64,000 bases of DNA. It comes from Candidatus Saccharimonadota bacterium (GTDB taxonomy: Bacteria > Patescibacteriota > Saccharimonadia > QS-5-54-17). Where the stretch lies: positions 178,866 through 242,865 of the forward strand of contig JBJHCT010000001.1 in NCBI GenBank assembly GCA_050486185.1, written 5' to 3'. The position numbers and the translations under genes are program-made. Below the pieces are notes generated by a model. That model saw nothing but the letters and a program-made list of their open reading frames with translations. It was not told the origin of the DNA and made no database searches. Positions 15,828 to 59,166 of the stretch are shown here, piece by piece (positions within the stretch are counted from its first letter, which is position 1; the number at the start of each line of letters is the position of its first letter).

Positions 15828-16424
15828 TCATCGTGTCACCACTCTCCATCCAAAAACTCGCGTATTACCAGATGGATTATACAGTTCCAGTTTCATGCTC
15901 GATGCAGCCTTAGCTGCAAACAAAGCACTTAGGCCAAATGAGTCACCATTGGCGGCTGTACCATCAGACACTCGACCCAGCGATGAAGTAGTTCGATTTA
16001 TTGCCACTGTGTCATCAATCGTTAGGCGTACGCCTACACCAAAGCCCTGGATCGATCCACCAATCAGCTCAACTGGCACGGCAATATCAAAGATTGTGTG
16101 ATATGAGCTTGCTGATACTGACTGAGAAGTACCTTCGTGAAAGGTTAGCTCTCCTGCGTCTGCGGCTGTGATTGGTAGTACTACAGACTCCCCAATCTGC
16201 CCCTCAACCCATTGCTTATTAGCAACATCAGTGTCATTGACTGGATCTGCTACTTGCAATCTACCCCATTCATCATAGGCTGCTAGCCTACTACCTCCTG
16301 CTGTTGTTCCATCATGTACTCTAAGAGTTTTATTAGTAGTATCTACTGTAACTTCTCTAGCTGCTCCAGTGAAGCTATCGTTATCTGTATTACTACCACC
16401 TCTTAGTTGTACTTGGTCGGGCAT
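15828..16424 (-). CDS. Tail-fibre-repeat (HylP-type) paralog #1: conserved N-module plus unique C-terminal domain
   Basis: N-terminus MPDQVQLRGGSNTDNDSFTGAAREVTVDTTNKTLRVHDGTTAGGSRL matches the phage tail fibre repeat pattern QLR.GT...E...DT..L..GDG.T. The 5' ~230 nt are near-identical to four other loci. Confidence 0.7.
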   Translation of the reverse strand: MPDQVQLRGGSNTDNDSFTGAAREVTVDTTNKTLRVHDGTTAGGSRLAAYDEWGRLQVADPVNDTDVANKQWVEGQIGESVVLPITAADAGELTFHEGTSQSVSASSYHTIFDIAVPVELIGGSIQGFGVGVRLTIDDTVAINRTTSSLGRVSDGTAANGDSFGLSALFAAKAASSMKLELYNPSGNTRVFGWRVVTR

Positions 16425-25519: not shown

Positions 25520-26885
25520 CGAATGGTTCCGGGTTGCCTTGCATCTCGAAAGTTCCCGCGTCGAGGTCACAGACGATAAGCACGGTCATGGTGTCCTCCT
25601 ACGGCTCGATTGGATAGCGGATGTAGGCGACCCCGCGTCCACCGCGACCCGAAAAGGGACCTGTGTTACCAGCCGCACCGCCGCCACCTGCGCCTGTACC
25701 ATGCGTTCCGGCACCGCCTGTGGGAGACGCATCGCTACCTCCTGCGCCGCCGCCGCCAGCACCACCGGCACCGCCAGCATCACGACCGCCCCCGCCGCCG
25801 CCACCGCCGCGAATGACGCTCGACCCGGTGAAGTCGGATGACTCCCCGGCCCCACCGGCACCACCTGTCGTCCACGTCGGGCCGTTCGCCCCCGCCGCCG
25901 AGGTTCCACCGCCACCGCCGCCCGAGTCGTCAGCCGAGCCGTCGCCACCGTCGTTCCCTTGACCTGATGATCCACTGCCCCCGGTTGAACGAGATGCTCC
26001 ACCGCCTCCTGAACCTCCTGAGCCACCAACCTGCTGCCCCGAACCAAAAGTACCCCCACCACCGCCGCCACCAGTTGCAGTCACACCCGCAAACGTCGTG
26101 TTCGAGCCTGCATTACCTCGCCCACCGCCGGTTACACCGGCACCTTCTGCACCGACCACCACGGGGTAGACGGAAGCCGCGACCGGGACACTGCCCGTGC
26201 GCCGACCACCGGCACCGCCACCGCCACCGCCACGGATACCCGAAGATCCGCCACCAGCGCCGCCTCCAGCGACCAGGTAATACTCGACTTCTTCGTCCGT
26301 ACCCGGATCTAGAACCGTAAAGTTGGCTGACCCCGCCGCCGCGAACGTATGAAGCCTATACTGCCGACCGTCGATGGTGATGGTCGACTCGGTGCCGCCA
26401 GTTGCCGAGACAGAAACCCACACATCAGACGCAATGATCCCGCGACGAAGCAGCCGCATCAGGTGACCGCCTGTGCGCCGGTCATAACCCACTCGTTCGT
26501 AGCGTGCTTCGTGAGCACCGCCGTGCCGTACCGGTCGAGCGTCCCCGCTAGACGAACCGTAACCCCAGAGCCACCCACGACGGTCACGCCACCTGCACCG
26601 GCCGCATAGACCTCGATCACACTGCCCACCACAAACGCGACCGACGAGTTAGGCGGGACAGTGACAGTCACCGCGGCGGTATTGGTGAACCGCTTGACCG
26701 TCCCCGCGTCGGCCAGGGCGAGTGTGTAGGTCGTGCCCGATTCGTCAGAGAGCGCGACAGACGCGACAGAGTCGCCAATCTGTCCATCTACGTAGCCCTT
26801 GTTGGCGATATCAGCATCATCGACAGGATCGGCTACTTGGGCGCGACCCCACTCGTCATAGACTAGGAGCTTATGCCCACCAGCT
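25520..26885. other. About 1.36 kb strongly GC-rich island of foreign composition (by eye roughly 65-70% GC vs ~40% flanks; not computed)
   Basis: An abrupt shift to GCC/GGC/CCG-dominated sequence. The low-GC sequence resumes at ~26885 inside fibre paralog #2, and at ~25520 inside a 30-codon ORF. Confidence 0.8.
25599..26459 (-). CDS. Glycine-rich protein resembling minor tail proteins of actinobacteriophages
   Basis: Has ...TITIDGRQYRLHTFAAAGSANFTVLDPG...YYLVAGGGAGGGSSG, then long poly-Gly tracts, ending VAYIRYPIEP. A start at 26459 gives a TGATG stop/start overlap with fibre #2. The ORF track shows an alternative start at 26492. Other ORFs in this region are GC-mirror artefacts. Confidence 0.5.
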   Translation of the reverse strand: MRLLRRGIIASDVWVSVSATGGTESTITIDGRQYRLHTFAAAGSANFTVLDPGTDEEVEYYLVAGGGAGGGSSGIRGGGGGGAGGRRTGSVPVAASVYPVVVGAEGAGVTGGGRGNAGSNTTFAGVTATGGGGGGGTFGSGQQVGGSGGSGGGGASRSTGGSGSSGQGNDGGDGSADDSGGGGGGTSAAGANGPTWTTGGAGGAGESSDFTGSSVIRGGGGGGGGRDAGGAGGAGGGGAGGSDASPTGGAGTHGTGAGGGGAAGNTGPFSGRGGRGVAYIRYPIEP

Positions 26886-27007
26886 GTTGTTCCATCATGT
26901 ACTCTAAGAGTCTTATTAGTAGTATCTACTGTAACTTCTCTATTAACGCCAGTAAAAGCATCGTTCTCTGCTTCGGTTCCACCTCTTAGTTGTACTTGGT
27001 CTGGCAT
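26459..27007 (-). CDS. Tail-fibre-repeat paralog #2: chimeric, with low-GC conserved N-module fused in frame to a high-GC C-terminal domain
   Basis: First ~40 codons are nearly identical in nucleotides to the other paralogs. From ...HDGTTAGG|HKLLVYDEWGRAQ the protein stays homologous (DEWGRAQVADPVDDADIANKGYVDGQIGDSV), but the DNA becomes GC-rich. Confidence 0.7.
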   Translation of the reverse strand: MPDQVQLRGGTEAENDAFTGVNREVTVDTTNKTLRVHDGTTAGGHKLLVYDEWGRAQVADPVDDADIANKGYVDGQIGDSVASVALSDESGTTYTLALADAGTVKRFTNTAAVTVTVPPNSSVAFVVGSVIEVYAAGAGGVTVVGGSGVTVRLAGTLDRYGTAVLTKHATNEWVMTGAQAVT

Positions 27008-27053
27008 AGCGTTAGTTACTCTTCCTAAATCCTTATGGATTATTGTTGTCTCT

Positions 27054-27083
27054 ATACTAAGTTAGTGGGGTGAGTTTAGTCAA
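27054..27083 (-). promoter_or_regulatory. Promoter of paralog #2 (TTGACT-N18-TAGTAT); 5'UTR shared with paralog #5
   Basis: Reverse strand: TTGACTaaactcaccccactaactTAGTAT. The downstream UTR ...caacaataatccataaggatttaggaagagtaactaac matches the paralog #5 UTR. Confidence 0.4.
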
Positions 27084-27258
27084 ATCAGTGTGTGGGGCTA
27101 TACTCCAACAATGCTGAATTCAATCTTGCTTGAGAAGATGAGAATATTGCAAGATGAATAGTAGAAGTTTATAGAGTGAATCTCTCCAATATAAACAGCC
27201 ACTTCCTAAGCAGATATATGGTATATTTTGCTATAATTCTTAAATATTATGGAGAGAT

Positions 27259-32121: not shown

Positions 32122-32197
32122 TGGCAGGGGTACCAGGATTCGAACCCGGACTACGACTTTTGGAGAGTCGTGTGCTAGCCGTTGACACTATACCCCT
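32122..32197 (-). tRNA. tRNA-Trp (anticodon CCA)
   Basis: Reverse complement: AGGGGUA acceptor, anticodon stem CGACU/AGUCG with loop CUCCAAA, T-arm GGUUCGAAUCC, G73 and CCA. Confidence 0.75.
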
Positions 32198-32903
32198 TCA
32201 ACTCACTAAATTCAGTATAAATCATTTCTAGTAACTTTCCGAGTCTCCTATCTAGGTATCTTATACTAATGCACCCTGGATAGTTGATACGCTTCGTTTT
32301 ACCGGCATGCTTCTTTAAGTAAGGTTTATGGAACTGATTTATTGGTATTTTTGTTACTTGTGACCAATATTCTGTCTGTGTAAGCGCATCATGATAGCTA
32401 TGTAAATGTATTAATGCTCTAAACTTAGATTCATCTAAATCGAAACACTCCCTTAAATAGCCCATGAATATTCTTACCATATTTGGATCAGAGTTAGCGA
32501 ACTGTATTCCTGCCGATATATCCTTACCCCCTTCACACCAAAATAGCATTGAGCATACTAGTTTTTTGTGAGATATATCTAGATTTATGTTTTTAGCAAT
32601 ATTTCTGGCAGATAAAGTAATTTCTTGATCTCTAGCAAGCTTTCTTTCCTTATTTATAGTTGCTAATTTATTGATATTATCTCTTTGTGTATTCCGGATT
32701 TTATGATTAGAAAAGTCTATACCATTTGAACTAAGCTTTATATCTTTAGTCCATGCATAGGCTGTAGACTTGGCAATATCAAGTTCCTGTGCGATTTCTG
32801 AATAGAAAAAACCTTGTTTTCTTAGCGTTACTGCTTCTTTTTTTATTTTCGAACTATAGCTCACTAATAACATAACCTCTTTATATAAGAAATTATACAG
32901 CAC
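32175..32903 (-). CDS. HTH-containing protein, possible degenerate LAGLIDADG-type homing endonuclease; its 3' end overlaps tRNA-Trp by 23 nt
   Basis: N-terminal HTH (YSEIAQELDIAKSTAYAW). Central LFWCEGGKDISAGIQFANSDPNMVRIFMGYLRECF vaguely resembles a LAGLIDADG block. Inserted between rpmG and tRNA-Trp. Confidence 0.35.
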   Translation of the reverse strand: MLYNFLYKEVMLLVSYSSKIKKEAVTLRKQGFFYSEIAQELDIAKSTAYAWTKDIKLSSNGIDFSNHKIRNTQRDNINKLATINKERKLARDQEITLSARNIAKNINLDISHKKLVCSMLFWCEGGKDISAGIQFANSDPNMVRIFMGYLRECFDLDESKFRALIHLHSYHDALTQTEYWSQVTKIPINQFHKPYLKKHAGKTKRINYPGCISIRYLDRRLGKLLEMIYTEFSELKGYSVNG

Positions 32904-32931: not shown

Positions 32932-33111
32932 TTAGTGTAGCTTCTTCTTTGATTCTCGATATATACTGCGTCTCTTAAGTAGTGGGTTGAACTTCTTAAG
33001 CTCTAATCGCTCTTCAGTGTTTCGAACGTTTTTAGTAGTGGTGTAGGTGCGGTGTCCTGTCTCTGTACACTCCATAGCGACAATACGTCTAGCACCTTGT
33101 TTCTTAGCCAT
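32932..33111 (-). CDS. rpmG: 50S ribosomal protein L33
   Basis: Translating the reverse strand by hand gives MAKKQGARRIVAMECTETGHRTYTTTKNVRNTEERLELKKFNPLLKRRSIYRESKKKLH (59 aa; below the ORF-track size cutoff). This matches L33. Confidence 0.8.
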   Translation of the reverse strand: MAKKQGARRIVAMECTETGHRTYTTTKNVRNTEERLELKKFNPLLKRRSIYRESKKKLH

Positions 33112-33269
33112 TTGATACCTCTTAAGTTATATATTTAGTTAAACAAGTAAGGATATTTACAGTGATATATTAATAATATAGCCGTTATTATCCGAGAGTT
33201 TTTATCAAACGTGTATTTTACGCTACATATTAACTACATGCAACACCTGCATGTGTAACTACGGCATTG

Positions 33270-33932
33270 TTAGGTCGTGATTCCTAAATCAACTACCATC
33301 TGCCAGACTGGGCGTACAGGATCCCCTACAGTGAAGGTTCCAACAGCAGGATTCCCGCGTGTCTTGAGCGTCATAGGTGAACCTGTCCCTACAAAAAGAT
33401 GTTCACAATAGGCAGAAACATTGCCCGATGCATTTGCGGCGTTATAGATTGCGACTTGCTGTTGGCCGTTCGATCCGTTAGTGATAGTCATATTGCCGCG
33501 ACCAGCAGTTGATCCGGTTAGGACTACCGCGAAAGCCCGATAGGCATATAGGCGGCCAGTCTCGGTATTAAACGTGAACTCAGAGCCAACTAAATCGACA
33601 GAGGCTCCTTCTGAAACAATCTGTTGTGTAGTACGAATATTAAACGCAAATCCTCCTGTACCCCCAGATGTTGCAGATACTACACCGTCGGGCTTGGGAG
33701 TAATAACCCCATCCACATAGCTCTTGTTAGCTACATCAGTGTCATTAACTGGATCTGCTGTTTGCAGCCTACCCCATTGATCATAAGCTGCTAGTTTACT
33801 TCCACCTGCTGTTACTCCATCATGTACTCTAAGAGTCTTATTAGTAGTATCTACTGTAACTTCACGTTGTGCTCCTGTGAAGTTATCATTATCTGTGCTG
33901 CTTCCACCTCTTAGTTGTACTTGGTCGGGCAT
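33270..33932 (-). CDS. Tail-fibre-repeat paralog #3 (real start at the MPDQVQLRGG Met, not the longer track ORF)
   Basis: Conserved N-module; unique C-terminal ~140 aa (jelly-roll-like, GC-richer). An upstream TTGTCT-N17-TATTAT promoter-like element is present. Confidence 0.7.
   Translation of the reverse strand: MPDQVQLRGGSSTDNDNFTGAQREVTVDTTNKTLRVHDGVTAGGSKLAAYDQWGRLQTADPVNDTDVANKSYVDGVITPKPDGVVSATSGGTGGFAFNIRTTQQIVSEGASVDLVGSEFTFNTETGRLYAYRAFAVVLTGSTAGRGNMTITNGSNGQQQVAIYNAANASGNVSAYCEHLFVGTGSPMTLKTRGNPAVGTFTVGDPVRPVWQMVVDLGITT
33727..33863. repeat. Arm 1 of a ~137-nt near-identical inverted repeat (5' coding module of paralog #3)
   Basis: About 3 mismatches to the reverse complement of 34976..35112. 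Confidence 0.7.
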
Positions 33933-34068
33933 AGTGTGTTTACTACCTTTTATAGAATTATATATCATAAGCATAATACTAAATTTATTACTGTTAGACA
34001 ATCTAAAATAAAATCTATCAAACTACTTCTATGGAGTTTGATAGTAAGTTGGTTATAATATTGTCTGT

Positions 34069-34143
34069 GCCCTGATAGCTCAGTGGTAGAGCGCTTCCAT
34101 GGTAAGGAAGAGGTCGCGAGTTCAATCCTCGCTCAGGGCTCCA
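34069..34143 (+). tRNA. tRNA-Thr (anticodon GGU)
   Basis: GCCCUGA acceptor, D-arm AGCUCAGUGGUAGAGC, anticodon loop AUGGUAA, T-arm GAGUUCAAUCCUC, CCA. Confidence 0.8.
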
Positions 34144-34217
34144 TATTAAAATAAATAGTTTTTGCTATAATCAGAAGCTGTTAGTATTCGTTTCTTTCCT
34201 GATGATACAATTATTAC

Positions 34218-34628
34218 ATGTCCCTATGTAAGAATTGCAGTACAGGATTAAACAGATTATCTAGTGTTTATTGTTCTAATAAATGCCAGAAAAATTACGA
34301 ATATGCTACGTACATTAAAAAGTGGAAACAAGGTAAAGTTACTGGTAGCAGAGGGGTTGATGCTAAGAATATTTCTAGGCATATTGTTAGATACCTAATC
34401 AGCAAGTATGAAGGTAGATGTGTAGAATGCGGCTGGAACAAGCTTCATCCAGTTACAGGTAACGTTTTACTAGAAGTAGATCATATAGATGGTGACTCGG
34501 ACAATAATCAGGAAGAGAATTTGCAGTTATTGTGTCCAAATTGCCATTCACTTACTAGTACATACAAAAATCTTAATAATGGTATGGGCAGAGAATGGAG
34601 AAGGTCTAAGTATATAAAATCTTCTTAG
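34218..34628 (+). CDS. HNH endonuclease with N-terminal zinc ribbon
   Basis: CKNCSTG...CSNKC ribbon, and the HNH core CVECGWNKLHPVTGNVLLEVDHIDGDSDNNQEENLQLLCPNCHS. Confidence 0.85.
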   Translation: MSLCKNCSTGLNRLSSVYCSNKCQKNYEYATYIKKWKQGKVTGSRGVDAKNISRHIVRYLISKYEGRCVECGWNKLHPVTGNVLLEVDHIDGDSDNNQEENLQLLCPNCHSLTSTYKNLNNGMGREWRRSKYIKSS

Positions 34629-34636
34629 TGTTTTTT

Positions 34637-34712
34637 GCCACCTTAGCTCAGTTGGTAGAGCAACGCTCTTGTAAAGCGTAGGTCGTCGGTTCGAGCCCGA
34701 CAGGTGGCTCCA
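34637..34712 (+). tRNA. tRNA-Thr (anticodon UGU)
   Basis: GCCACCU acceptor, anticodon stem ACGCU/AGCGU with loop CUUGUAA, T-arm GGUUCGAGCCC, CCA. Confidence 0.8.
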
Positions 34713-34728
34713 TAAATAACATACATAT

Positions 34729-34815
34729 GCCAGGGTAGCGAAGCGGCCAAACGCATCTGACTGTAAATCAGACGGCTTCATGCCTTCGGGGGTTCGAATC
34801 CCTCCCCTGGCACCA
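34729..34815 (+). tRNA. tRNA-Tyr (anticodon GUA), long variable arm
   Basis: GCCAGGG acceptor, anticodon loop CUGUAAA, extended variable arm, T-arm GGUUCGAAUCCC, CCA. Confidence 0.8.
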
Positions 34816-34821
34816 CATAAT

Positions 34822-34851
34822 TTGACTGTTGTGCCCTAACTACCCTATTAT
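34822..34851 (+). promoter_or_regulatory. Promoter of paralog #4 (TTGACT-N18-TATTAT)
   Basis: TTGACTgttgtgccctaactacccTATTAT. The AAAGGTAGA Shine-Dalgarno lies 8 nt before the ATG. Confidence 0.4.
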
Positions 34852-34906
34852 CTAAGAATAACCAGTATTTATACTTTTTTTATATAACCAAAGGTAGATA
34901 ATAATC

Positions 34907-35587
34907 ATGCCCGACCAAGTACAACTAAGAGGTGGTACAGAAGCAGAGAATAATAACTTCACAGGAGCAGCCAGAGAAGTTACAGTAGATACTACTAATA
35001 AGACTCTTAGAGTACATGATGGAGAAACAGCAGGAGGAAGTAAACTAGCAGCTTATGATCAATGGGGTAGGCTGCAAACAGCAGATCCAGTTAATGACAC
35101 TGATGTAGCTAATAAGCAGTGGGTTGAAGGGCATGTTAGTGGTGCTGCTACTCGTCGCGCACTTGTGATTCGCGATGATGTTCAAACAATCCCTAATGCC
35201 ACCACTACAGCAATGATATTCCAGACAGAGGTTTATGACGACGATGGCATGTTTGATATCGGATCACCAACCATGCTTGTTGTGCCATCCGGTGCGTCGA
35301 AAGTACGTGTGTCCGCTAGCGTGGTATGGGGAAGTAATGCAGACGGTCTGCGACAAGCGTTTATTGAACGCGACACTGGTGCAGGATTTACTGCGAGCTA
35401 TAACGGAGTAGCCCGGTTCGCAATGGACCCCGGGACTTCCAATCAGGCTTACTGGACAATGGCGACTGCCTGGATTGCATGTGATCCAGGTGATAAGTTT
35501 CAATTAGCTGTGCATCATACACGAGGAACCACTCTGCAAATGCAAGGCAGTGGTCTAACATGGATGATGATGGAGATATTAACATAA
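34907..35587 (+). CDS. Tail-fibre-repeat paralog #4
   Basis: Conserved N-module (MPDQVQLRGGTEAENNNFTGAAREVTVDTTNKTLRVHDGETAGG). Unique GC-richer C-terminal ~150 aa. Confidence 0.7.
   Translation: MPDQVQLRGGTEAENNNFTGAAREVTVDTTNKTLRVHDGETAGGSKLAAYDQWGRLQTADPVNDTDVANKQWVEGHVSGAATRRALVIRDDVQTIPNATTTAMIFQTEVYDDDGMFDIGSPTMLVVPSGASKVRVSASVVWGSNADGLRQAFIERDTGAGFTASYNGVARFAMDPGTSNQAYWTMATAWIACDPGDKFQLAVHHTRGTTLQMQGSGLTWMMMEILT
34976..35112. repeat. Arm 2 of the ~137-nt inverted repeat (5' module of paralog #4)
   Basis: Near-identical to the reverse complement of 33727..33863. Confidence 0.7.
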
Positions 35588-35658
35588 GGATAATAGATAA
35601 TCCTCATCAATCCTAACTTAGCTTTAATACACGCCACACTAAACCCATCGCAAAAGTA

Positions 35659-36267
35659 TTATGCTGGCATATTCCTAATCTGTTCTCTGACTTCCTCAGC
35701 CTTTTTGTACTGTTTAGCATTTTCATAAGCTTCTAGTAAGTATTCTAGATTTCTAGGGCTAGGGTCTTCTTCTACTACGTCTTCTAATATATCTACTACT
35801 CGTTTATGGTTCTCCATTTTCTGCAATACTTTAGCAAATACCAACATTCTTTTTACGGTCGGCTCTAAATCGATAACTTTTTCTAGTGCCGTAGCGGCCT
35901 CCTCTAGATTGCCGGTTCTAAACTGCAATACTCCTAGGTTGTACAAACTAGCTACTGAAGGAGCCAGTGATGAGGCGATGTCTAAACAGGCTATAGCATC
36001 ATCGGTTCTATTCATACGTGAATACAGTAAACCTAAGCGGTTATATGCTGCTGTGTTTTTTGGATCGTACTTTAATATCTTTAGCAACGCTCTTTCGGCG
36101 CTTTGGTACCTGCCTTTTTCTATAGCAGTCTCTGTATAGCTCCAAAAGCGCTTTATAGCTTGAGTCATTTTGGGAGTTTTAATATCTTGCATGTAGTATT
36201 TTTGGTATCTTTTGACACCTATAACTACCAAGACCATAGCTAATATAAGTAGGCTAATTTCCGCCAT
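35659..36267 (-). CDS. TPR-repeat protein with N-terminal membrane anchor
   Basis: N-terminal TM helix, followed by several 34-aa TPR-like repeats (AYNRLGLLYS..., LYNLGVLQFRTGN...). Confidence 0.65.
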   Translation of the reverse strand: MAEISLLILAMVLVVIGVKRYQKYYMQDIKTPKMTQAIKRFWSYTETAIEKGRYQSAERALLKILKYDPKNTAAYNRLGLLYSRMNRTDDAIACLDIASSLAPSVASLYNLGVLQFRTGNLEEAATALEKVIDLEPTVKRMLVFAKVLQKMENHKRVVDILEDVVEEDPSPRNLEYLLEAYENAKQYKKAEEVREQIRNMPA

Positions 36268-37084
36268 CTACAACCCCTGCGTGATTATTTGCTAATGCGA
36301 CTGTATCTAGTATATAGCGCTTATTAACATTCGTCACCATCAATTCACTTGATTTAATAGTTGCAATCGATTTTTCTAACCAATCTTGATTACCTGCGTC
36401 ATTCTCTAGCATATATCTAGCGTATAGGACGATTTCATCTAATACTTCCGGTAGGTATTCTTGCAAGTCTTTAGCTGCTTTAAGCCTAGAGCTAGGCTGG
36501 CCACTTAGTAGCTGCTCAATTAATTGGTATCTTTCTAGAACCGCTTCTTTAACCTCTTCATCAGCAAGTATGCTGACTAAACGACCTGGCAAGTATCCAC
36601 TCATAACTAGAGCAGCTTCTAGCATGCCTTGATCAACGTCTTTAAACTCTTCACTAGCCCAATCAATCATTTCAGATTTACTTGGTGGTGGGAAATATAG
36701 GGCTTGGCTGCGTGATCTAATGGTCGGCAGTAACGCATAGAGGTCACTGGTGACCATAATGACAGCTACACTCTCTGGCAGCTCCTCAAGTGTCTTTAAA
36801 AAAGCGTTCTGAGCCGCTGCTGTCATCTTTTCAGCTGATTTAATTAATATATAGACAGTCTCTTTATGCCACTGCTTTAGTTTTAGCTGCTTGGTAAGGT
36901 ATTTAATCCCCTCTACTCCGATAGAGCCTTCCTCACCAAATATCTGCACGTTATTTACTCCTAAAGTCTCAACTATAGAGGAGCTCTTACCTATGCCTCC
37001 TGGCCCATAGACTATATAGACTCCAGGGGTCTTGATAGTATCGAGTACCGCATCGCTCTTAGAATTTAACAACATCATCGGCAC
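36254..37084 (-). CDS. holB: DNA polymerase III delta'-like AAA+ protein
   Basis: P-loop YGPGGIGKSS; size and position are typical of delta'. Confidence 0.6.
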   Translation of the reverse strand: MPMMLLNSKSDAVLDTIKTPGVYIVYGPGGIGKSSSIVETLGVNNVQIFGEEGSIGVEGIKYLTKQLKLKQWHKETVYILIKSAEKMTAAAQNAFLKTLEELPESVAVIMVTSDLYALLPTIRSRSQALYFPPPSKSEMIDWASEEFKDVDQGMLEAALVMSGYLPGRLVSILADEEVKEAVLERYQLIEQLLSGQPSSRLKAAKDLQEYLPEVLDEIVLYARYMLENDAGNQDWLEKSIATIKSSELMVTNVNKRYILDTVALANNHAGVVDGGN

Positions 37085-37138
37085 CTATTATATAGCTAAA
37101 AGAGGTAGCAGCCAAAACGGGCTACATTTCTTAGATAC

Positions 37139-37822
37139 TTACAAAGACTGCCAGTAGTTGGCCAGTTCATCTGGTAACTCGCTAGTGTAGCTAACCGACT
37201 CACCGCTCATATCGACAAAAGCGATACTTTTAGCATGCAGAAACTGTCTACTCAAACCCTTGGTCGATACTCCATATATGCGGTCCCCTAGTACCGGGTG
37301 GCCTAAGTGAGCTAGATGCACTCTAATTTGATGAGTTCTGCCCGTTAAAATCCTAACTCCCAGTAAACTTTTACCGTCTTTTTCTTCCAAGACTTCGTAC
37401 TCAGTGATAGCCATCTTACCACCAGATCTGACCTGTCTCTTGGCAGGATCCTTTGGCGATCTAGCTATGGGCCACTCGAGTCTTGCTTGTGGCAGTTTTA
37501 ATTTACCGCTAACAGCTGCTAGGTAGTATTTCTCTACCTGCCGGCTTTTAAATAGGCTTTGTAGGTATTCTCTACTTTTAGTATTTTTAGCAACCAATAA
37601 CACTCCAGAAGTATCTCTATCTAGTCGATGAACTATGCCTGGTCGATCAGAACCTGGATCATCTATTTGATCTGCTAGTATCTCTGCGACCGATAAGCCT
37701 ACTGTATCAGATGAGGCTGCATCAGCTTCCCTGCCAGGATGCACCAACATACCGGCCGGTTTATTTACTACCAGGTAATCTGGAGTTTGAAAGATAATTT
37801 CTAGATTATGAGCCATATACAT
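37139..37822 (-). CDS. RluA-family pseudouridine synthase
   Basis: Catalytic-Asp motif HRLDRDTSGVLLVAK. Confidence 0.85.
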   Translation of the reverse strand: MYMAHNLEIIFQTPDYLVVNKPAGMLVHPGREADAASSDTVGLSVAEILADQIDDPGSDRPGIVHRLDRDTSGVLLVAKNTKSREYLQSLFKSRQVEKYYLAAVSGKLKLPQARLEWPIARSPKDPAKRQVRSGGKMAITEYEVLEEKDGKSLLGVRILTGRTHQIRVHLAHLGHPVLGDRIYGVSTKGLSRQFLHAKSIAFVDMSGESVSYTSELPDELANYWQSL

Positions 37823-37864
37823 CAGCTAGTATAGCAGTTGAAACCTAAGGGCTTTAAGTAGGTT

Positions 37865-38281
37865 CTAACGCTTAGTGAACTGTGGAGCCTTACGAGCTCG
37901 CTTGAGGCCGTATTTCTTTCGTTCTTTGACTCTAGAGTCACGTTTGATGTATCCAGCTCGTTTCAGAGTCGATCTAAGCTGATCGTCCATAGCTACTAGG
38001 GCGTTAGCTATAGCTAGTCTGGCTGCATCGGCCTGGCCACTAATTCCGCCACCTTTAATTACCAAAGTTATGCGGTATTTATCTTCTTTATCAAGTAGTT
38101 TTAATGGCTGAGCGATTCTTTGTGATAGTTCTTCGTGGCCGAAATATTCTTCAGCCTTTTTATCACCTACCCAAATACCTTTATCTCCAGAGCTATATAG
38201 CCTAGCAGTCACTACTGCTTCTTTGCGTCTACCGATTCCGTAATAGTATTTCATATGCTTATGACCTTTCTTTCTTACCAT
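37865..38281 (-). CDS. rpsI: 30S ribosomal protein S9
   Basis: C-terminal ...GLKRARKAPQFTKR is typical of S9. Follows rplM. Confidence 0.9.
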   Translation of the reverse strand: MVRKKGHKHMKYYYGIGRRKEAVVTARLYSSGDKGIWVGDKKAEEYFGHEELSQRIAQPLKLLDKEDKYRITLVIKGGGISGQADAARLAIANALVAMDDQLRSTLKRAGYIKRDSRVKERKKYGLKRARKAPQFTKR

Positions 38282-38708
38282 CGAGCTTTAGCTCCTCTGG
38301 TTGCTGAGCTTCGTGAGTATGCTCTGCCCCTGGGAACACTTTTAGTCTCAACATTCTACCGTCCCGTAGTTTATTGCTGGGCAGCATTCCTCTAACTGAG
38401 CTGATTATAACTTGGGTGGAGTCTTTATCTAGCTGCTCACTCAAAGTACGTGACTTGATGCCTCCTGGGTAGCCACTGTGTCTGTAGTAGGTTTTAGCAG
38501 CTAACTTATTACCGGTAGTTTTAACCTTATCAGCGTTAATAACGATAATGTGATCACCACCATCAATATGCGGTGTGTAGCTAGCTTTATGTTTACCCAT
38601 CAAGTATTTAGCAACTACAGTTGATAGTCTACCTAACACTACGTCTTTAGCATCAACAACATACCATTTTCTAGCAACTTCAACCGGTCTTTGTGAGTAA
38701 GTTTTCAT
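38259..38708 (-). CDS. rplM: 50S ribosomal protein L13
   Basis: L13-like sequence, paired with rpsI. Confidence 0.9.
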   Translation of the reverse strand: MKTYSQRPVEVARKWYVVDAKDVVLGRLSTVVAKYLMGKHKASYTPHIDGGDHIIVINADKVKTTGNKLAAKTYYRHSGYPGGIKSRTLSEQLDKDSTQVIISSVRGMLPSNKLRDGRMLRLKVFPGAEHTHEAQQPEELKLDGKKERS

Positions 38709-39238
38709 TATTTATCCTCTTTCTTTTTGGCAGCAGAAGCCTTCTTAGCAGCAGGTTTCTTGGTTGTCGTTTTAGTTGCCGTCTTAGCGGTTGATTTAGC
38801 AGCGGTAGTCTTTTTAGTAGTGTCGGCTGTCTTTGTTGTAGATTTAGCAGTAGTAGCAGGCTTAGTAGCTGGTTTCTTGCTGTCTTCTTTAACAAAGCTA
38901 ATTGTAGCCATCTCGGTATTATCACCTCTGCGCCAACCGGCCGACTCAATCCTTAGATATCCGCCAGGTCTAGTCTTAAACCTAGGTCCTAAATCAGAAA
39001 ACAACTTATCTAGTGACTCTTTGGTGCTGATTTTACTCAAAACCAATCTGCGGTTGTGTTGGTTATCAACCTTAGCTTTAGTTATCAGCTTCTCAACGTA
39101 AGGTCTTAGAGCCTTAGCTTTAGGCTTAGTGGTCTTAATACTCTCATGAGTTATTAGAGACTCAGTTAAAGTCTTTAATAGGGCTCGGCGCTGATCGCGC
39201 TTTCTGGATAGTTTATGTCTTTGCGCTGGCAGTGACAT
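38708..39238 (-). CDS. rplQ: 50S ribosomal protein L17 with Lys/Ala/Thr-rich C-terminal extension
   Basis: L17 core ...RPGGYLRI..., then a low-complexity tail. Follows rpoA. Confidence 0.9.
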   Translation of the reverse strand: MSLPAQRHKLSRKRDQRRALLKTLTESLITHESIKTTKPKAKALRPYVEKLITKAKVDNQHNRRLVLSKISTKESLDKLFSDLGPRFKTRPGGYLRIESAGWRRGDNTEMATISFVKEDSKKPATKPATTAKSTTKTADTTKKTTAAKSTAKTATKTTTKKPAAKKASAAKKKEDK

Positions 39239-40146
39239 TATTTTAGCTCCAGTTCCTTTAGCTTACTTATAACTTCATCTAGGGCCTTAGCGCCGAAGCC
39301 CTTTAGGCCTTTAAGGTCAGAATCATTCATGGCAGCTAGTTGCTTCAGTGTGACTACACCGTTTTTCTCTAATGCATTGAAAGTGCGTTGTGAAAAGTCT
39401 AGATCAGCTACGCTGATGTTTAGATCTTCTGGCTCTTCTTCTGGCTCTTCTACTTCGGCTACAGCATTGCCACCGGCTATGACGTTGAATTGGTTAACTA
39501 GGATAGTAGAGGCTTGTTCTAAGGTGTCTCTAGGATCGATAGTACCATCAGTTTCTATACTGATAATTAGCTTGTCTAGGTCGGTAACTTGTCCGACACG
39601 AGTGTTCTCTACCTTGTATCTAACCTTTTTGATAGGTGAGAATAGGGCATCAAGTCCGATCATGCCTACACCAAAGTTTCCAGCCTGCTCATCAACTGTC
39701 TGATAACCGCGGCCTTTCTCTACCTGTAAGCTCATCTCTAGTTTAGATTTGTCGTTATCTAAAGTAGCAATGATTTGATCAGGGTTGACTACTTCAACCT
39801 CAGAACTACCTTCTAAATCAGCAGCCGTTACAGGGCCTTTGCCCTTTTTGCTGATTTTAAGAGTTTGTGGTTCATCGCTGTAGACTTTGAATCTAATCTT
39901 CTTTAGGTTCAAGCTGATGATCACTACATCTTCTTTAACACCATTTAGAGTGGTGAACTCATGGGTTGCTCCATCAACACTAAAGGCAGTAGCTGCTGCA
40001 CCGCTTAGTGAGGAAAGTAGCACTCGACGCAGTGAGTTGCCGATAGTAACACCGAAACCCCTGTGTAAAGGCTCGATAGTGTACTCACCGACAAAATCGC
40101 TTTCGTCTATAATCTTAACTTCTGGCAAATGAATATTGTATTGCAT
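39238..40146 (-). CDS. rpoA: DNA-directed RNA polymerase subunit alpha
   Basis: N-terminal domain ...GFGVTIGNSLRRVLLSS..., and a C-terminal domain with the HhH-like ...NGVVTLKQL.... Confidence 0.9.
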   Translation of the reverse strand: MQYNIHLPEVKIIDESDFVGEYTIEPLHRGFGVTIGNSLRRVLLSSLSGAAATAFSVDGATHEFTTLNGVKEDVVIISLNLKKIRFKVYSDEPQTLKISKKGKGPVTAADLEGSSEVEVVNPDQIIATLDNDKSKLEMSLQVEKGRGYQTVDEQAGNFGVGMIGLDALFSPIKKVRYKVENTRVGQVTDLDKLIISIETDGTIDPRDTLEQASTILVNQFNVIAGGNAVAEVEEPEEEPEDLNISVADLDFSQRTFNALEKNGVVTLKQLAAMNDSDLKGLKGFGAKALDEVISKLKELELK

Positions 40147-40168
40147 ATATTTCTCCTTCTTTTCTTGC

Positions 40169-40774
40169 TTATCTTGAGTAAAACTCTACTATTAATTGTT
40201 CATTGATCTCAGGCTCTGCCTCATCACGATTAGGTAGACCTGTTACTTTAGCGCTCATCTTACTTTTATTAAAAGAAAGCCAACTTAATTCTGGAGATCC
40301 TTCAATAGTAAGTGACTGGAAGTAAGTGTTTTTCGCACTTTTCGGTCTAATCGTAATCTCATCACCTGGCCTGACTCTAATAGAAGGTATATCTACGCGG
40401 CGTCCATTAAGCATAATGTGGCCATGAGTAACTAGCTGACGAGCTGATTGACGAGAAGTAGCTAGTTGCAGCCTATAAACTACATTATCTAGACGTCTTT
40501 CTAGGTATTGCAATATCAATTCACCGGTTACGCCTTCGCCTTTTTCGGCCTCTTTAACTAATTTACGGAACTGCTTTTCAAGTAGTCCATAGATTCTTTT
40601 GACCTTCTGCTTTTCACGTAACTGCGTAGCATACTGGGTAGGCTTTGATCTTCTAGCACCGGCATTTTCTCCCGGTAGGGACTTTCGCTTGGCCATAATC
40701 TTGTGAGCTTTAGGATGCAAAGCTACACCTTCTCTACGACTTCTTTTAGCAATCGGCATTAAATCTCTAGCCAT
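40169..40774 (-). CDS. rpsD: 30S ribosomal protein S4
   Basis: S4 N-terminus plus an S4 RNA-binding domain, in alpha-operon order. Confidence 0.9.
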   Translation of the reverse strand: MARDLMPIAKRSRREGVALHPKAHKIMAKRKSLPGENAGARRSKPTQYATQLREKQKVKRIYGLLEKQFRKLVKEAEKGEGVTGELILQYLERRLDNVVYRLQLATSRQSARQLVTHGHIMLNGRRVDIPSIRVRPGDEITIRPKSAKNTYFQSLTIEGSPELSWLSFNKSKMSAKVTGLPNRDEAEPEINEQLIVEFYSR

Positions 40775-40777
40775 ATC

Positions 40778-41173
40778 TTAAACCCTTCTAGCCTTTCTAG
40801 GCCTACAGCCGTTGTGTGGCACACCTGTAACGTCTTTGATACTAGTTACATTGATATCAGTATTCATCAGCGCTCTAATGGCTGCTTCTCGGCCCTGGCC
40901 AATACCTTTAACAAACACCTGAACCTGCTTCATACCGAAAGGCTTAACTTTCTCAGCAGCATTCTCACTAGCTAGCTGGGCGGCATAGGCAGTGCCCTTA
41001 CGAGATCCTTTAAAACCACTAGCACCAGCTGAGGAAGAAGCTAGTGTATTACCCTTGTTATCGGTAAAAGTAACTATGGTGTTATTAAAACTAGCGAAAA
41101 CATGCACCTGGCCGGTTGGGACAGATTTCTTCTGCTTTGCTTTAGTAGTAGTCTTTTTTGTAGCTTGAGCCAT
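40778..41173 (-). CDS. rpsK: 30S ribosomal protein S11
   Basis: Conserved S11 sequence and position. Confidence 0.9.
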
Positions 41174-41205
41174 TAAATATTACCTCTTTTATACCTTTCT
41201 TGATC

Positions 41206-41592
41206 TTAAGTTGGCGTTGGAGCCTTATTTTTCGCACCACCAACTGTCATTCTCTTGCCTCGTTTAGTTCTAGCGTTGGTCTTGGTTCTTTGTCCTCGTA
41301 CCGGTAGTCCTGCTTTGTGTCTCATACCTCTGTATGAGTTGATTTCTCGAAGACGAGAAATACTAACTCTAATACGTTGAGCAAGATCTCCCTCAACTTC
41401 GTAATCTTTATCGATAATTTCACGGATCTTACTTAGCTCTGTTTCTGATAAATCTTTGATTCTGACATTCTCATCTACTTTAGCTTTAGCTAGTATCTTT
41501 TGAGAGTTTGCTCTACCAATGCCGTAAACGTATGTCAGCGCAATAACTGCTCTTTTATCATCTGGAATGTTAACTCCTGCTATTCTAGCCAT
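41206..41592 (-). CDS. rpsM: 30S ribosomal protein S13
   Basis: [14 protein letters not shown] start is typical of S13. Confidence 0.9.
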
Positions 41593-42206: not shown

Positions 42207-42866
42207 CTACATCTTCTCTGCAACAACAGTAATTACCCGATTCCTAAAAGTACTAGTGGCCGAAGATGTCGCATACTTTGCGGTAAACGTAGTAGTACCG
42301 GGGTTCAGCCCGCTAAGCAAAAACGTTCTGGAAGCCGTACCATGTCCTGACCCGGCCCAGGAATTCCCTATAGCACTACGGCTTTGCGCTGTCAGCCCTC
42401 CCCAAGTATCCCCAGCGGCGTATGTATTTGTTCCAGTCGCTGCAAGGTTCATTGACGTCACAACACCAGCACCCGAACCCCACATAAAGGCACTCAGCGA
42501 TACCAGGACTTTACCAGATGCTGGTACGTCGATTTCAATAGAAGGACCAACAGTGGCTAAATCAGTAAAAGATGTGCTAGTGGTTGACTCTTGTGCTGCT
42601 GTTTCTGAACCCTCGAAGCTTATTCCAGACTCTTCAACCACCCCATCTACATAACTCTTGTTAGCTACATCAGTATTATTGACTGGATCTTCTACTTGCA
42701 GCCTACCCCATTCATCATAAGCTGCTAGTCTACTTCCTCCTGCTGTTTCTCCATCATGTACTCTAAGAGTCTTATTAGTAGTATCTACTGTAACTTCACG
42801 GCTTACTCCAGTGAAGCTATCGTTATCGTTTGCTGTACCACCTCTTAGTTGGACTTGGTCGGGCAT
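42207..42866 (-). CDS. Tail-fibre-repeat paralog #5, inserted between secY and infA
   Basis: Conserved N-module. Unique Ser/Thr/Gly-rich, GC-richer C-terminal ~140 aa. Confidence 0.7.
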   Translation of the reverse strand: MPDQVQLRGGTANDNDSFTGVSREVTVDTTNKTLRVHDGETAGGSRLAAYDEWGRLQVEDPVNNTDVANKSYVDGVVEESGISFEGSETAAQESTTSTSFTDLATVGPSIEIDVPASGKVLVSLSAFMWGSGAGVVTSMNLAATGTNTYAAGDTWGGLTAQSRSAIGNSWAGSGHGTASRTFLLSGLNPGTTTFTAKYATSSATSTFRNRVITVVAEKM

Positions 42867-42912
42867 GGTGTTAGTTACTCTTTCTAAATCCTTATGGATT
42901 ACTGTTGTCTTT

Positions 42913-42942
42913 ATATTAGGTTAGTAGAGTAGGTTTAGTCAA
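42913..42942 (-). promoter_or_regulatory. Promoter of paralog #5 (TTGACT-N18-TAATAT)
   Basis: Reverse strand: TTGACTaaacctactctactaaccTAATAT, then a UTR shared with paralog #2. Confidence 0.4.
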
Positions 42943-42948
42943 CGCTAT

Positions 42949-44256
42949 CTACTTATAACTAGCGTTAATAATCTGTGAGTCGATTTGGCGCAAGCTTTCG
43001 ATACTAACACTGACTACAATCAATAGCCCTGTACCACCAAAGGTTAGAGCTTGTGATCCGGTGATGTATTCACCTATAAAGGGCAGTACAGCTATAAAGC
43101 CTAGGGAGATAGCTCCAAAGAGAGTAATCCTATTAACGATCTTCCTTAGATACTCCTCTGTTTGTTTACCGGGCCTAATACCGGGTATAAAGCCGCCTTG
43201 TTTTTGCAAGTTCTCAGCAATGTCGACTGGATTGAAGACTATACCGGTATAGAAGTAAGTAAAAGCTACTACTAAGCCAAAGTAGGTGAAAGCATAGATC
43301 ATATTGGATGGATCAAACCATACAGTTAAGTTAGTAGCTAGTGTTGCTAGCCAAGCTGCATCGGCATTAGCTAGAATCTGACCGATAAAGGCCGGTAAGG
43401 ACAGGAAGGCTACTGCAAATATGATTGGGATTACACCGGCCGTTAGAATACGGATAGGAAGCTCTGATTCCACCCCGCCATAGCCGCTGTTTTGCATCCG
43501 CTTAGCATAGGAGACTTTAACGATTCTCCTAGCCTCATTGAGCTTAACGATATAGTAAGTGATGATGAGCGAGGCGATTACAAAGAAGCCGACCTGCAGA
43601 ATTTCAGTAGTTGAGGCTTGAACTATCGAAACAGCCTGACCGAAGACACCTGGCAATTGAGCGATGATAGAGGCGGCAATCAATATAGATATACCATTAC
43701 CTACACCCTTCTCACTAATTAACTCACCCATCCACATCAGTAGCATCGAACCGGCCACCATAACTGTAATCATCAACACCCACTCATAGGCACTAGGATT
43801 ACCAATAATATCGGTCTGGCCCACCTGGATAGCTAATTGTCTAATAAAGAAGACGGTACCGATAGATTGGCCGATAGCTAATGGCAAGGTTAGATACCGA
43901 GTATATTGATTGATCTTGCGTCTACCCTCTTCACCCTCTTTTTTCAACTCCGAGAACTTTGGCACCACCTGGGTAAGTATCTGCATGATAATTGAGGCAT
44001 TAATATATGGGCCTAGACCCATTAGAGCAATCGAGAAGTTCGCTACCGCACCACCGGAAAATAGATCAACTAAGCCAAATAGACGATTGCTAGATAGTAG
44101 ATCAGTTAAAAAGTTACTTAAAGTCGCACTATCGGCAAAAGGAATAGGTACATGGGCCATAATCCTGTAGATTAATACCATAAAAAAGACCGCTAGGATT
44201 TTGTTACGTAAATCCTTATTGGTTAAAACGGATTTGAGTATCCTGTTGCCCTCCAT
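42949..44256 (-). CDS. secY: Preprotein translocase subunit SecY
   Basis: 10-TM protein with conserved SecY blocks. Follows rplO. Confidence 0.9.
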   Translation of the reverse strand: MEGNRILKSVLTNKDLRNKILAVFFMVLIYRIMAHVPIPFADSATLSNFLTDLLSSNRLFGLVDLFSGGAVANFSIALMGLGPYINASIIMQILTQVVPKFSELKKEGEEGRRKINQYTRYLTLPLAIGQSIGTVFFIRQLAIQVGQTDIIGNPSAYEWVLMITVMVAGSMLLMWMGELISEKGVGNGISILIAASIIAQLPGVFGQAVSIVQASTTEILQVGFFVIASLIITYYIVKLNEARRIVKVSYAKRMQNSGYGGVESELPIRILTAGVIPIIFAVAFLSLPAFIGQILANADAAWLATLATNLTVWFDPSNMIYAFTYFGLVVAFTYFYTGIVFNPVDIAENLQKQGGFIPGIRPGKQTEEYLRKIVNRITLFGAISLGFIAVLPFIGEYITGSQALTFGGTGLLIVVSVSIESLRQIDSQIINASYK

Positions 44257-57658: not shown

Positions 57659-57985
57659 CTACATCTTGATTTCTGTATCTACACCGCTAGGTAGATTCAG
57701 ATTCATCAAAGAGTCAATCGTCTTATTAGTAGGCTCACTAATATCAATTAATCGCTTATGAACTCGCATCTCAAACTGTTCACGAGAAGATTTGTAGATA
57801 TGTGGACTCTTAACTACTGTGTAACTACTTCTATCGGTCGGTAGTGGAATGGGGCCAGCAACCTTCGCACCAGTTCTAAGAGCTGTTTCGATAATCTGTT
57901 TAGCTGATTGATCTATCAGCTTATGATCATAGGCCTTAAGTCTGATACGAATACGTTGCTTAGTGGGTGCTTCGGAAGTAGCCAT
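57659..57985 (-). CDS. rpsJ: 30S ribosomal protein S10
   Basis: ...[25 protein letters not shown]... is typical of S10. Immediately downstream of tuf. Confidence 0.9.
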
Positions 57986-59166
57986 TATTTATTGATTTTG
58001 GTTACTACACCAGCACCAACGGTCTTACCACCTTCACGAATAGCGAAGCGCAAGCCCTCTTCCATGGCGATTGGCTGAATTAGTTTAACTTTGAAAGTCA
58101 CATTATCACCTGGCATGACCATCTCGGCGCCTTCTGGTAGTTCTACCTCACCAGTTACGTCAGTGGTTCTGAAGTAAAACTGTGGCTTATATCCCTTAAA
58201 GAATGGGGTGTGTCGTCCACCTTCCTCTTTGTTTAGAATGTAAACTTCTGCATCAAATTCTGTGTGTGGAGTGATAGTTCCTGGCTTAGCTAGTACCTGT
58301 CCGCGCTCGATATCTTCACGCTCAATACCTCGAAGCAAGATACCAACGTTATCACCGGCCTGACCGCTATCTAGGTTCTTGTTGAACATCTCAACACCGG
58401 TAACGATCGATTTAGTAGTGTCTTTAAGTCCGACGATCTCTATCTCGTCGTTAACATTAACTACACCTTGTTCAATTCTACCGGTAGCTACAGTACCACG
58501 TCCTTTAATAGAGAAAACGTCCTCTACTGGCATCAAGAAGTCTTTGTCGATTTCACGCTTTGGCTCTTCGAAGTACTCATCCATAGCTTTAACTAGCTCC
58601 ATGATTGAGTCTTGGTGTTCAGCTTCACCCTCGATAGCCTTAAGAGCGGAACCCTTAATGATCGGAGCTTCTGCATCAAACTCGTACTTCTCTAGAAGTT
58701 CACGAACTTCCATCTCAACTAGTTCAATTAGATCTGGGTCGGCTAGATCGGTCTTGTTTAGATAAACAATAATACTTGGTACACCTACCTGACGAGCAAG
58801 CAAAACGTGCTCTCTAGTTTGTGGCATAGGGCCATCAGCAGCAGATACTACCAAAATAGCACCATCAACCTGAGCAGCACCGGTAATCATGTTTTTAACG
58901 TAGTCGGCGTGTCCTGGCATGTCGACGTGGGCGTAGTGTCTGTTCTCCGACTCGTACTCTAGGTGGGTTGTAGAGATGGTAATACCACGCTCTTTCTCCT
59001 CTGGTGCCTTGTCGATCGCTTCATAGGCAGTAGCTTTGTTAATTTCGCTAGGAACCTTTTCAGCTAGTACTGCAGTAATAGCAGCACTCAAAGTAGTTTT
59101 ACCGTGGTCCACGTGGCCCATAGTACCTACATTAATGTGTGTCTTGTCTCTTTTAAAATCAGCCAT
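57985..59166 (-). CDS. tuf: Elongation factor Tu
   Basis: [17 protein letters not shown] and NKTD GTPase motifs; 393 aa. Confidence 0.95.

Follow-up and report, generated by a model that had tools for sequence, protein, structure and literature searches.

The window, a 64,000-nt stretch of the chromosome of a Candidatus Saccharimonadales bacterium (candidate phyla radiation, CPR; Patescibacteria), carries five copies of a phage-tail-fibre-like gene family, named p1 to p5 here, which share their N-terminal module (N module). The N modules of the neighbouring copies p3 and p4 form long inverted repeats on both sides of a tRNA/HNH endonuclease cluster. Their near-identical core is probably a gene-conversion tract between the two genes. 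The original prediction, made from the letters of the window, had regarded these repeats as a substrate for homologous inversion, and the HNH nuclease as a possible engine that homogenises and shuffles the family.

The inverted arms and their near-identical core

The p3 gene (33270-33932, - strand, 220 aa) and the p4 gene (34907-35587, + strand, 226 aa) are divergently oriented. A repeat search and pairwise alignment showed that the left arm (33701-33932, - strand) and the right arm (34907-35138, + strand) are the N modules of p3 and p4, codons 1-77 in each. The two arms of 232 nt are 88% complementary and are separated by a gap of 974 nt; the similarity sets in a few bases 5' of both start codons (ATG) and breaks off sharply at codon 77. 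The core comprises codons 24-69 (33727-33863 on the - strand for p3, 34976-35112 on the + strand for p4), and 135 of its 138 bases are identical, with two synonymous and one non-synonymous codon differing. Two perfect runs are shared, of 49 nt (nt 70-118 of the coding sequence, CDS) and of 77 nt (CDS nt 130-206; 35036-35112 in the p4 arm). The original prediction was thus accurate on the arms as the 5' modules of two divergent paralogs, on the core with about three mismatches, and on an identity of about 90% over roughly 230 nt. The p4 gene is the sole + strand copy in the window, and it forms inverted repeats of 226-232 nt with all four other paralogs; the p3/p4 pair is set apart by its core tract and its closeness only. 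Regarded purely as an inverted repeat, the pair is nothing unusual: oppositely oriented paralogs with a conserved, conversion-homogenised module.

The possibility that the identity of the repeats is a consensus or assembly artefact, which the original prediction had named as part of what would refute it, was ruled out by an independent assembly. In the Logan assembly of SRR31311414, one contig (L012) matches the window from 35083 to 41391 at 100% identity, and its end at 35083 lies 30 nt into the 77-nt perfect run. Such a break would fit the branching of a k-mer graph at a true repeat. The repeat is therefore genuine, since the second assembly is independent, identical, and broken inside the perfect run.

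The similarity pattern of the N modules was analysed by a run test on the 85 polymorphic sites in the first 240 CDS nt, with 10,000 permutations. The p3 and p4 genes agree at 31 consecutive polymorphic sites (CDS nt 130-206), a run that was reached in 0 of 10,000 permutations. The affinities differ on either side. At CDS nt 30-45 p4 is like p2 (a run of 7, p = 0.0009) and p3 is like p1; at CDS nt 207-228 p4 is like p1 and p3 is like p5. Between p3 and p4 the core divergence is 3/138, versus 9-16/138 in the other pairs among p1, p3, p4 and p5, that is 3-5 times lower. Another block (CDS nt 70-117) has a single variable site in the five copies of the window, and this holds even for p2, which is otherwise 75% identical; four family copies of the metagenome-assembled genome (MAG) LejiaB_40_21 (LejiaB) encode nearly the same peptide over this block, with several third-position differences.

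The N modules also cluster by genome. Identity among those of p1, p3, p4 and p5 is 83-88%; in comparison with the LejiaB copies it is 60-75% (72-75% for Lj1a and Lj1b). The N modules of Lj1a and Lj1b are 88% identical. The C-terminal parts have a different history. No similarity was found between the C-termini of the five window paralogs; the only detectable homologue of the p5 C-terminus is LejiaB Lj2 (38%, 2e-14), and that of the p2 C-terminus is LejiaB Lj4 (40%, 5e-19). The mosaicism, the synonymous homogeneity and the incongruent histories of the N and C parts are three independent lines which argue for gene conversion. In this respect the original prediction, which saw a homogenised family, holds for the 5' modules, as judged from the mosaic conversion tracts and the clustering by genome.

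The p3/p4 core, of about 137 nt, is thus probably a recent tract of non-reciprocal recombination, and one patch of a mosaic which keeps the family's N modules similar inside this genome. The exchange could proceed through homologous recombination of the RecA/RecFOR type. The distance of about 1 kb between p3 and p4 would favour conversion, and hence the longest and most recent tract may be found in this pair. For the direct copies p1, p2, p3 and p5, crossovers would delete ribosomal operons, so that only non-crossover events would be survivable. The homogenised module may serve all members of the family for docking or trimerisation. If the arms do cross over, this would be a rare and nearly neutral by-product, and not a programmed switch.

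The closest known mechanism is gene conversion that makes dispersed or inverted paralogs evolve in concert. It is found in the inverted tufA/tufB genes of Salmonella and E. coli, the rRNA operons, and the opa and pilS/pilE genes of Neisseria. As in these systems, the copies are more alike within the genome than in comparison with another genome, and the tracts are short and mosaic. As in tufA/tufB, conversion takes place between inverted copies, where a crossover would invert the interval. However, only the 77-codon N module is homogenised here and the rest of the gene is unrelated; the genes encode phage-tail-fibre-like proteins of a CPR bacterium, and no silent-cassette or expression-locus layout is evident.

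Several points weigh against gene conversion as the explanation of the core. The nearest genome compared is only 56-57% identical in holB, and the run test treats polymorphic sites as exchangeable. Stronger purifying selection on the core raises the identity for all pairs, though p3 and p4 still differ 3-5 times less there than the other pairs do, and the core might conceivably stem from a partial duplication with the flanks diverging afterwards. Of the machinery for homologous recombination, RecR is encoded in the window. The AlphaFold2 (AF2) model of p4 is of low quality (mean predicted local distance difference test score, pLDDT, 57).

The tRNA locus and its HNH gene

Between the arms lie the genes for tRNA-Thr(GGU) (34069-34143; Rfam 69.1 bits), the HNH endonuclease (34218-34628), tRNA-Thr(UGU) (34637-34712) and tRNA-Tyr(GUA) (34729-34815). 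ARAGORN, Rfam and Pfam agree with the gene content given by the original prediction, and all of these genes are on the + strand. The Rfam scan revealed five tRNAs and nothing else. The locus has conserved anchors on both sides, as judged from Pfam and synteny: rpmG on the left (32932-33111, - strand; ribosomal protein L33, Pfam Ribosomal_L33), and on the right the gene of a tetratricopeptide repeat (TPR) protein followed by holB (DNA polymerase III delta') (35659-37084, - strand).

In LejiaB, whose holB is 56% identical, the gene order is TPR, four small open reading frames (ORFs), tRNA-Tyr, tRNA-Thr(UGU), tRNA-Thr(GGU), rpmG and tRNA-Trp, and, as in the window, the first three tRNA genes run against holB, rpmG and tRNA-Trp. 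The LejiaB locus has no p3 (the spacer is 136 nt), no p4, and no HNH gene (50 nt between the two tRNA-Thr genes). Lineages farther away, with holB at 29-37% identity, have the order rpmG, yajQ, tRNA-Thr(GGU), HNH, tRNA-Thr(UGU), tRNA-Tyr, TPR and holB. There the HNH, tRNA-Thr(UGU) and tRNA-Tyr genes run opposite to the flanking genes, with the same place and strand in BUCK21, L020 and L021. The order of tRNA-Thr(UGU) and tRNA-Tyr, and their orientation relative to rpmG, TPR and holB, are as in the window in LejiaB, the BUCK21 lineage and the JGI (Joint Genome Institute) genome L021; the strand of tRNA-Thr(GGU) is as in the window in LejiaB, whereas it is flipped in BUCK21 and L021. At neither flank of the tRNA locus does any other lineage examined have p3 or p4. 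The orientation in the window is therefore ancestral, since the tRNA-Thr(UGU)-Tyr arrangement is the same in three lineages without the flanking paralogs. The p3 and p4 genes are later arrivals in two variable flanks of an old tRNA locus.

The spacer between rpmG and tRNA-Trp also differs between the two genomes. It is only 90 nt in LejiaB, whereas in the window it is occupied by a 242-aa ORF (32175-32903, - strand) with a weak N-terminal helix-turn-helix (HTH) match, whose 3' end overlaps tRNA-Trp by about 23 nt. The motif 'LFWCEGGKD' gives this ORF a LAGLIDADG-type look, and it may be another mobile-element gene.

The HNH protein (136 aa, + strand) has an intact catalytic H-N-H and intact Cys pairs, with the motif DH...NN...N...CPNCH and CxxC pairs. 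It matches Pfam HNH with an E-value of 5.9e-7 (30 bits versus a cut-off of 21.4) and also 16 PHROG HNH families. The family includes more than 1,140 proteins, mostly of about 136 aa. The HNH gene adjoins tRNA-Thr(UGU) in five lineages (the window, L016-L019, L020, L021-L023, and L024-L025). Its stop codon lies 2-8 nt before tRNA-Thr(UGU) in the window (8 nt), L016-L019 and L021-L023; the ORF abuts or overlaps tRNA-Thr(UGU) in L020, and in L024 and L025 tRNA-Thr(UGU) stands 56 nt before the HNH gene. Across these lineages the HNH proteins are 54-60% identical, versus 45% for L33, 34% for TPR and 29-37% for holB. The gene is thus sporadic at a fixed site, being present in five lineages and absent from the closest relative, LejiaB. 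No p3/p4-like genes were found by tblastn at the HNH loci L016-L025 of four lineages. The partner of the HNH gene is therefore the tRNA and not the fibre family, since HNH-bearing loci occur without fibre genes.

Some of these properties are shared with the free-standing HNH homing endonucleases of T4-like and SPO1-like phages: a small intact ORF stands in an intergenic position beside a conserved gene, and this ORF is missing from some related genomes and is better conserved than the genes around it. In contrast to the phage enzymes, this gene occurs within a single bacterial order, on the chromosome and in constant linkage with tRNA-Thr(UGU), and homing is putative here. As far as the sequence goes, the HNH gene could equally be a homing element aimed at the tRNA-Thr locus or a domesticated gene. 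The literature search found nothing on a linkage between HNH and tRNA-Thr.

Inversion, duplication and nuclease-driven repair as alternatives

The original prediction held that an inversion of the segment would swap the promoters and the 5' ends of p3 and p4 and invert the tRNA block. A substrate for such an event might well exist, given the 77-nt perfect run; however, the comparison of lineages gave no sign of inversion and the orientation is ancestral. The predicted effect likewise stands for the promoters, the 5' ends and the tRNA block, but only about 23-40 near-identical codons would be swapped and the C-termini would stay in place, so that no C-terminal shuffling would follow. The tRNA genes would be turned into the direction of their neighbours. 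The search for an inverted configuration in relatives also went against the prediction: tRNA-Thr(UGU) and tRNA-Tyr have the same orientation in three distant lineages, and only tRNA-Thr(GGU) differs. Crossovers are physically plausible, and nothing suggests that they are frequent or selected; an occasional RecA-type inversion of little consequence is possible. The inversion claim has a low prior probability.

Invertons have short specific recombination sites, a dedicated recombinase adjoining the segment, and an inversion that changes the gene or part expressed. The repeats here are 232-nt paralogous coding modules which include both start codons, the adjacent 242-aa ORF has its weak HTH match only, and each of the two genes has its own promoter-like site and a near-identical 5' part. 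No recombinase (resolvase or integrase) domain was found in the about 45 ORFs scanned with Pfam, NCBIfam and PHROG, a scan which left the ribosomal-protein stretch at about 44-52 kb outside. The Mu G segment with Gin, the P1 C segment with Cin and the R64 shufflon with Rci also combine a constant N-terminal part with alternative C-terminal parts, and have inverted repeats inside the coding sequence. In these systems a dedicated invertase acts on sites of 19-34 bp, and a single constant region with a single promoter is fused to one variable part or another; p3 and p4, in contrast, are complete genes, each with its own start and promoter-like site and a 232-nt 5' module, and no invertase was found in the ORFs scanned. 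The likeness to tail-fibre invertible segments is superficial.

A mixed-orientation population, in which the 1.1-kb tRNA/HNH segment flips by RecA-type crossovers in the 77- and 49-nt runs, is rather unlikely. The two perfect runs in inverted arms less than 1 kb apart would permit it, RecR is encoded in the window, both products would probably keep the genes intact, and the flipped tRNA genes would be co-directional with every neighbouring gene. The short-read assembly does break inside the repeat, although such a break is expected of any repeat and is uninformative on orientation. The observed orientation, common to three lineages without flanking repeats, the absence of a recombinase domain from the scanned ORFs, and the small selectable phenotype to be expected from an exchange of almost identical sequence all argue against such a population. 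A recent inverted duplication of the 5' end or of the whole gene, with one C-terminal domain replaced and ordinary divergence without ongoing conversion, is less probable still. It would suit the adjacency of p3 and p4, the 83-88% identity among the p1, p3, p4 and p5 N modules, and an inverted pair of full-length paralogs that lie 7 kb apart in LejiaB. However, the similarity is a mosaic in which, outside the core, p4 is nearer to p2 and p1 and p3 is nearer to p1 and p5; the p3 and p4 C-terminal domains are without mutual similarity, and the N modules group by genome while the p5 and p2 C-termini have partners in the other genome.

Repair of double-strand breaks made by the HNH nuclease, as the force that drives conversion or shuffling among the fibre paralogs, is the least credible of these explanations and very improbable. 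Homing endonucleases do promote gene conversion locally, as is well established, and the HNH ORF between the two most similar modules is intact. The same HNH family, however, stands beside tRNA-Thr(UGU) in four lineages without a p3/p4-like gene nearby, so that the idea of the HNH gene as the homogenising engine finds no support in the comparison. LejiaB has no HNH gene of this kind at the locus, and its N modules are equally homogenised (88% between Lj1a and Lj1b); moreover, p1, p2 and p5 are 8-18 kb away and yet within the mosaic. Gene conversion between p3 and p4 by general homologous recombination is thus the reading that we prefer.

Further searches bearing on the segment gave the following results. 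The exact core 41-mer is absent from the JGI metagenome contigs, a holB scan of these contigs gave no match, an exact-protein look-up of the HNH protein, p4 and two further proteins returned no record, and a cluster look-up gave singletons. A GC-skew argument for a past inversion was considered and rejected: the local skew follows the coding strand at every + strand gene of the window.

The tail-fibre-like family and its chromosomal setting

The N module is present in five copies in the window (tblastn and blastn), which has no other long repeats; at least 9 family members are listed on the source contig (264,553 bp). Besides p3, which lies between tRNA-Thr(GGU) and rpmG, and p4, the copies are p1 (15828-16424, - strand), directly downstream of rplL; p2 (26459-27007, - strand), the most divergent paralog, with a GC-rich C-terminus and upstream of secE and nusG; and p5 (42207-42866, - strand), between secY and infA. 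The paralogs are 182-226 aa long. The Pfam domain Mtd_N (PF18454) was found at residues 5-41 in all four scanned copies (p2 to p5), with 40-50 bits versus a cut-off of 26.3 (E-values of 1.4e-12 for p3 and 2.1e-13 for p4); p1 was outside the Pfam scan, and the protein sequence of its N module shows 84% identity. In 5/5 copies Mtd_N is followed by a conserved neck, 'GRLQxxDPV..D.ANK.YV', beyond which the sequences are unrelated. Every copy begins at a start codon of its own behind a promoter-like upstream region, and the C-terminal domains are unrelated, that of p3 being unique. Residues 67-214 of p4 match phage virion and tail families (PHROG 13989, 2e-12; PHROG 11660, 1.6e-10), and the p5 C-terminus matches a minor tail protein family (PHROG 7565, 1.9e-25). 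Related N domains occur in 61 IMG/VR viral contigs. The AF2 model of p4, built on a 17-sequence alignment, is all-beta and of low confidence, with a predicted template modelling score (pTM) of 0.37, which is too poor for a search by fold. No such gene family of Saccharibacteria turned up in the literature search, which was partly swamped by 'mtDNA' matches.

The phage fibres with Mtd and Mtd_N, such as that of Bordetella phage BPP-1, also have Mtd_N at the extreme N-terminus, variable and receptor-binding-like C-terminal domains, and matches to phage tail PHROG families. In contrast to BPP-1 Mtd, the genes described here are chromosomal, stand singly among ribosomal and tRNA operons, and are much shorter. 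A diversity-generating retroelement was considered and rejected: there is no template repeat/variable repeat (TR/VR) in the window and no reverse transcriptase among the ORFs scanned.

Promoter-like sites were located by a consensus scan only, in which the number of sites was no higher than in shuffled sequence. One lies upstream of p4 (34822-34851, + strand; TTGACT-18-TATTAT, 10/12 matches) and one upstream of p3 (33973-34001, - strand; TTGTCT-17-TATTAT, 9/12 matches). No terminator-like sites were found around the locus. Upstream of p2 and p5 (27008-27085 and 42867-42945) there is a common region of about 76 nt, with a promoter-like pair TTGACT...TATA(G/A)A and a small hairpin (AATCCATAAGGATT); its start-codon-proximal part is also conserved upstream of a LejiaB copy. 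The upstream type of p1, p3 and p4 differs from the p2/p5 type.

The p2 gene is followed by a 297-aa ORF with Gly_rich_2 (PF21722), and the two occupy 25599-27007 on the - strand. The 1-kb stretch in which they lie reaches 61% GC (65% in the C-terminal part of p2) versus about 42% for the genome, and the pair lies within a 2.2-kb insertion relative to LejiaB, bounded by secE and a conserved gene of 69 aa. The LejiaB proteins of 322-346 aa have Mtd_N and Gly_rich_2 joined in one chain. The p2/Gly_rich_2 pair may have arisen by the splitting of a gene or may have been acquired from a foreign source.

The LejiaB genome shows several related arrangements. At its secY/infA site (L013 3979-4656), which p5 occupies in the window, a fibre-like gene of 225 aa stands in the other orientation, with a different N-terminus and the same 'GRLQVADPV...YVD' neck; this site seems to be a recurrent home for fibre-like genes. 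A convergent inverted pair of full-length Mtd_N and Gly_rich_2 genes is found at L001 9984-17387, with main arms of 249 nt at 87% identity, further arm pairs, and about 5 kb with four genes enclosed. Inverted paralog pairs therefore recur in the family. The Lj2 gene starts 130 nt past tRNA-Leu(CAA) (L002 2178-2397), and Lj4 (L004 8093-11981) lies among tRNA-Gly, Arg, His and Lys genes, near a weak HNH-like match beside tRNA-His. These positions suggest that tRNA-flanking spacers are preferred sites of fibre-like genes.

The window itself is bacterial chromosome and not phage. Matches above the NCBIfam cut-offs include EF-Tu (57985-59166), S7, SecY (42949-44256), RpoA (39238-40146), DnaB, CysS and L1; NusG, L11, L7/L12, L33, RecR and thymidylate kinase are also encoded. 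Between S7 and EF-Tu lies an ORF of 693 aa, with a match to a PHROG family of translation elongation factors. Collinearity of the window with LejiaB extends from secY to rplK, and the homologues of the local genes are named Candidatus Saccharimonadales. The phage framing that the original prediction had assumed does not agree with these marker genes and with the collinearity with Saccharimonadales MAGs. A phage origin was also rejected by megablast of 33200-35700 against 50,697 phage records, which gave one 53-nt tRNA-like match only; the markers are bacterial. The family genes are singletons scattered among ribosomal, tRNA and replication genes, with no virion or tail cluster around them. Elsewhere in the window, a phage-like gene of 271 aa (6333-7148, - strand; Phage Tail Collar, Pfam E-value 1e-26; PHROG tail collar fibre, 1e-49) sits between an AI-2E transporter gene and cysS.

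The gene family and the coupling of HNH with tRNA-Thr(UGU) are more interesting than the inversion, and neither depends on it. The coupling across the order provides a testable case of homing into a tRNA locus or of domestication. It is conceivable, albeit quite unlikely, that the fibre-like genes form a surface-recognition repertoire of an episymbiont, with the N module as a docking handle on one cellular structure and also as a portable recombination handle. If so, the family could take up new receptor-binding C-termini from phages or relatives and transfer them from one expression site to another, and recombination between p3 and p4 would reassign a C-terminal domain behind a stronger promoter beside the tRNA genes. 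At least 9 phage-tail-fibre-like genes are retained, scattered among the most conserved operons, in a CPR bacterium whose genome is very small. Their N modules evolve in concert, and the family is a candidate for the biology of host attachment or phage interaction in an uncultured episymbiont lineage.

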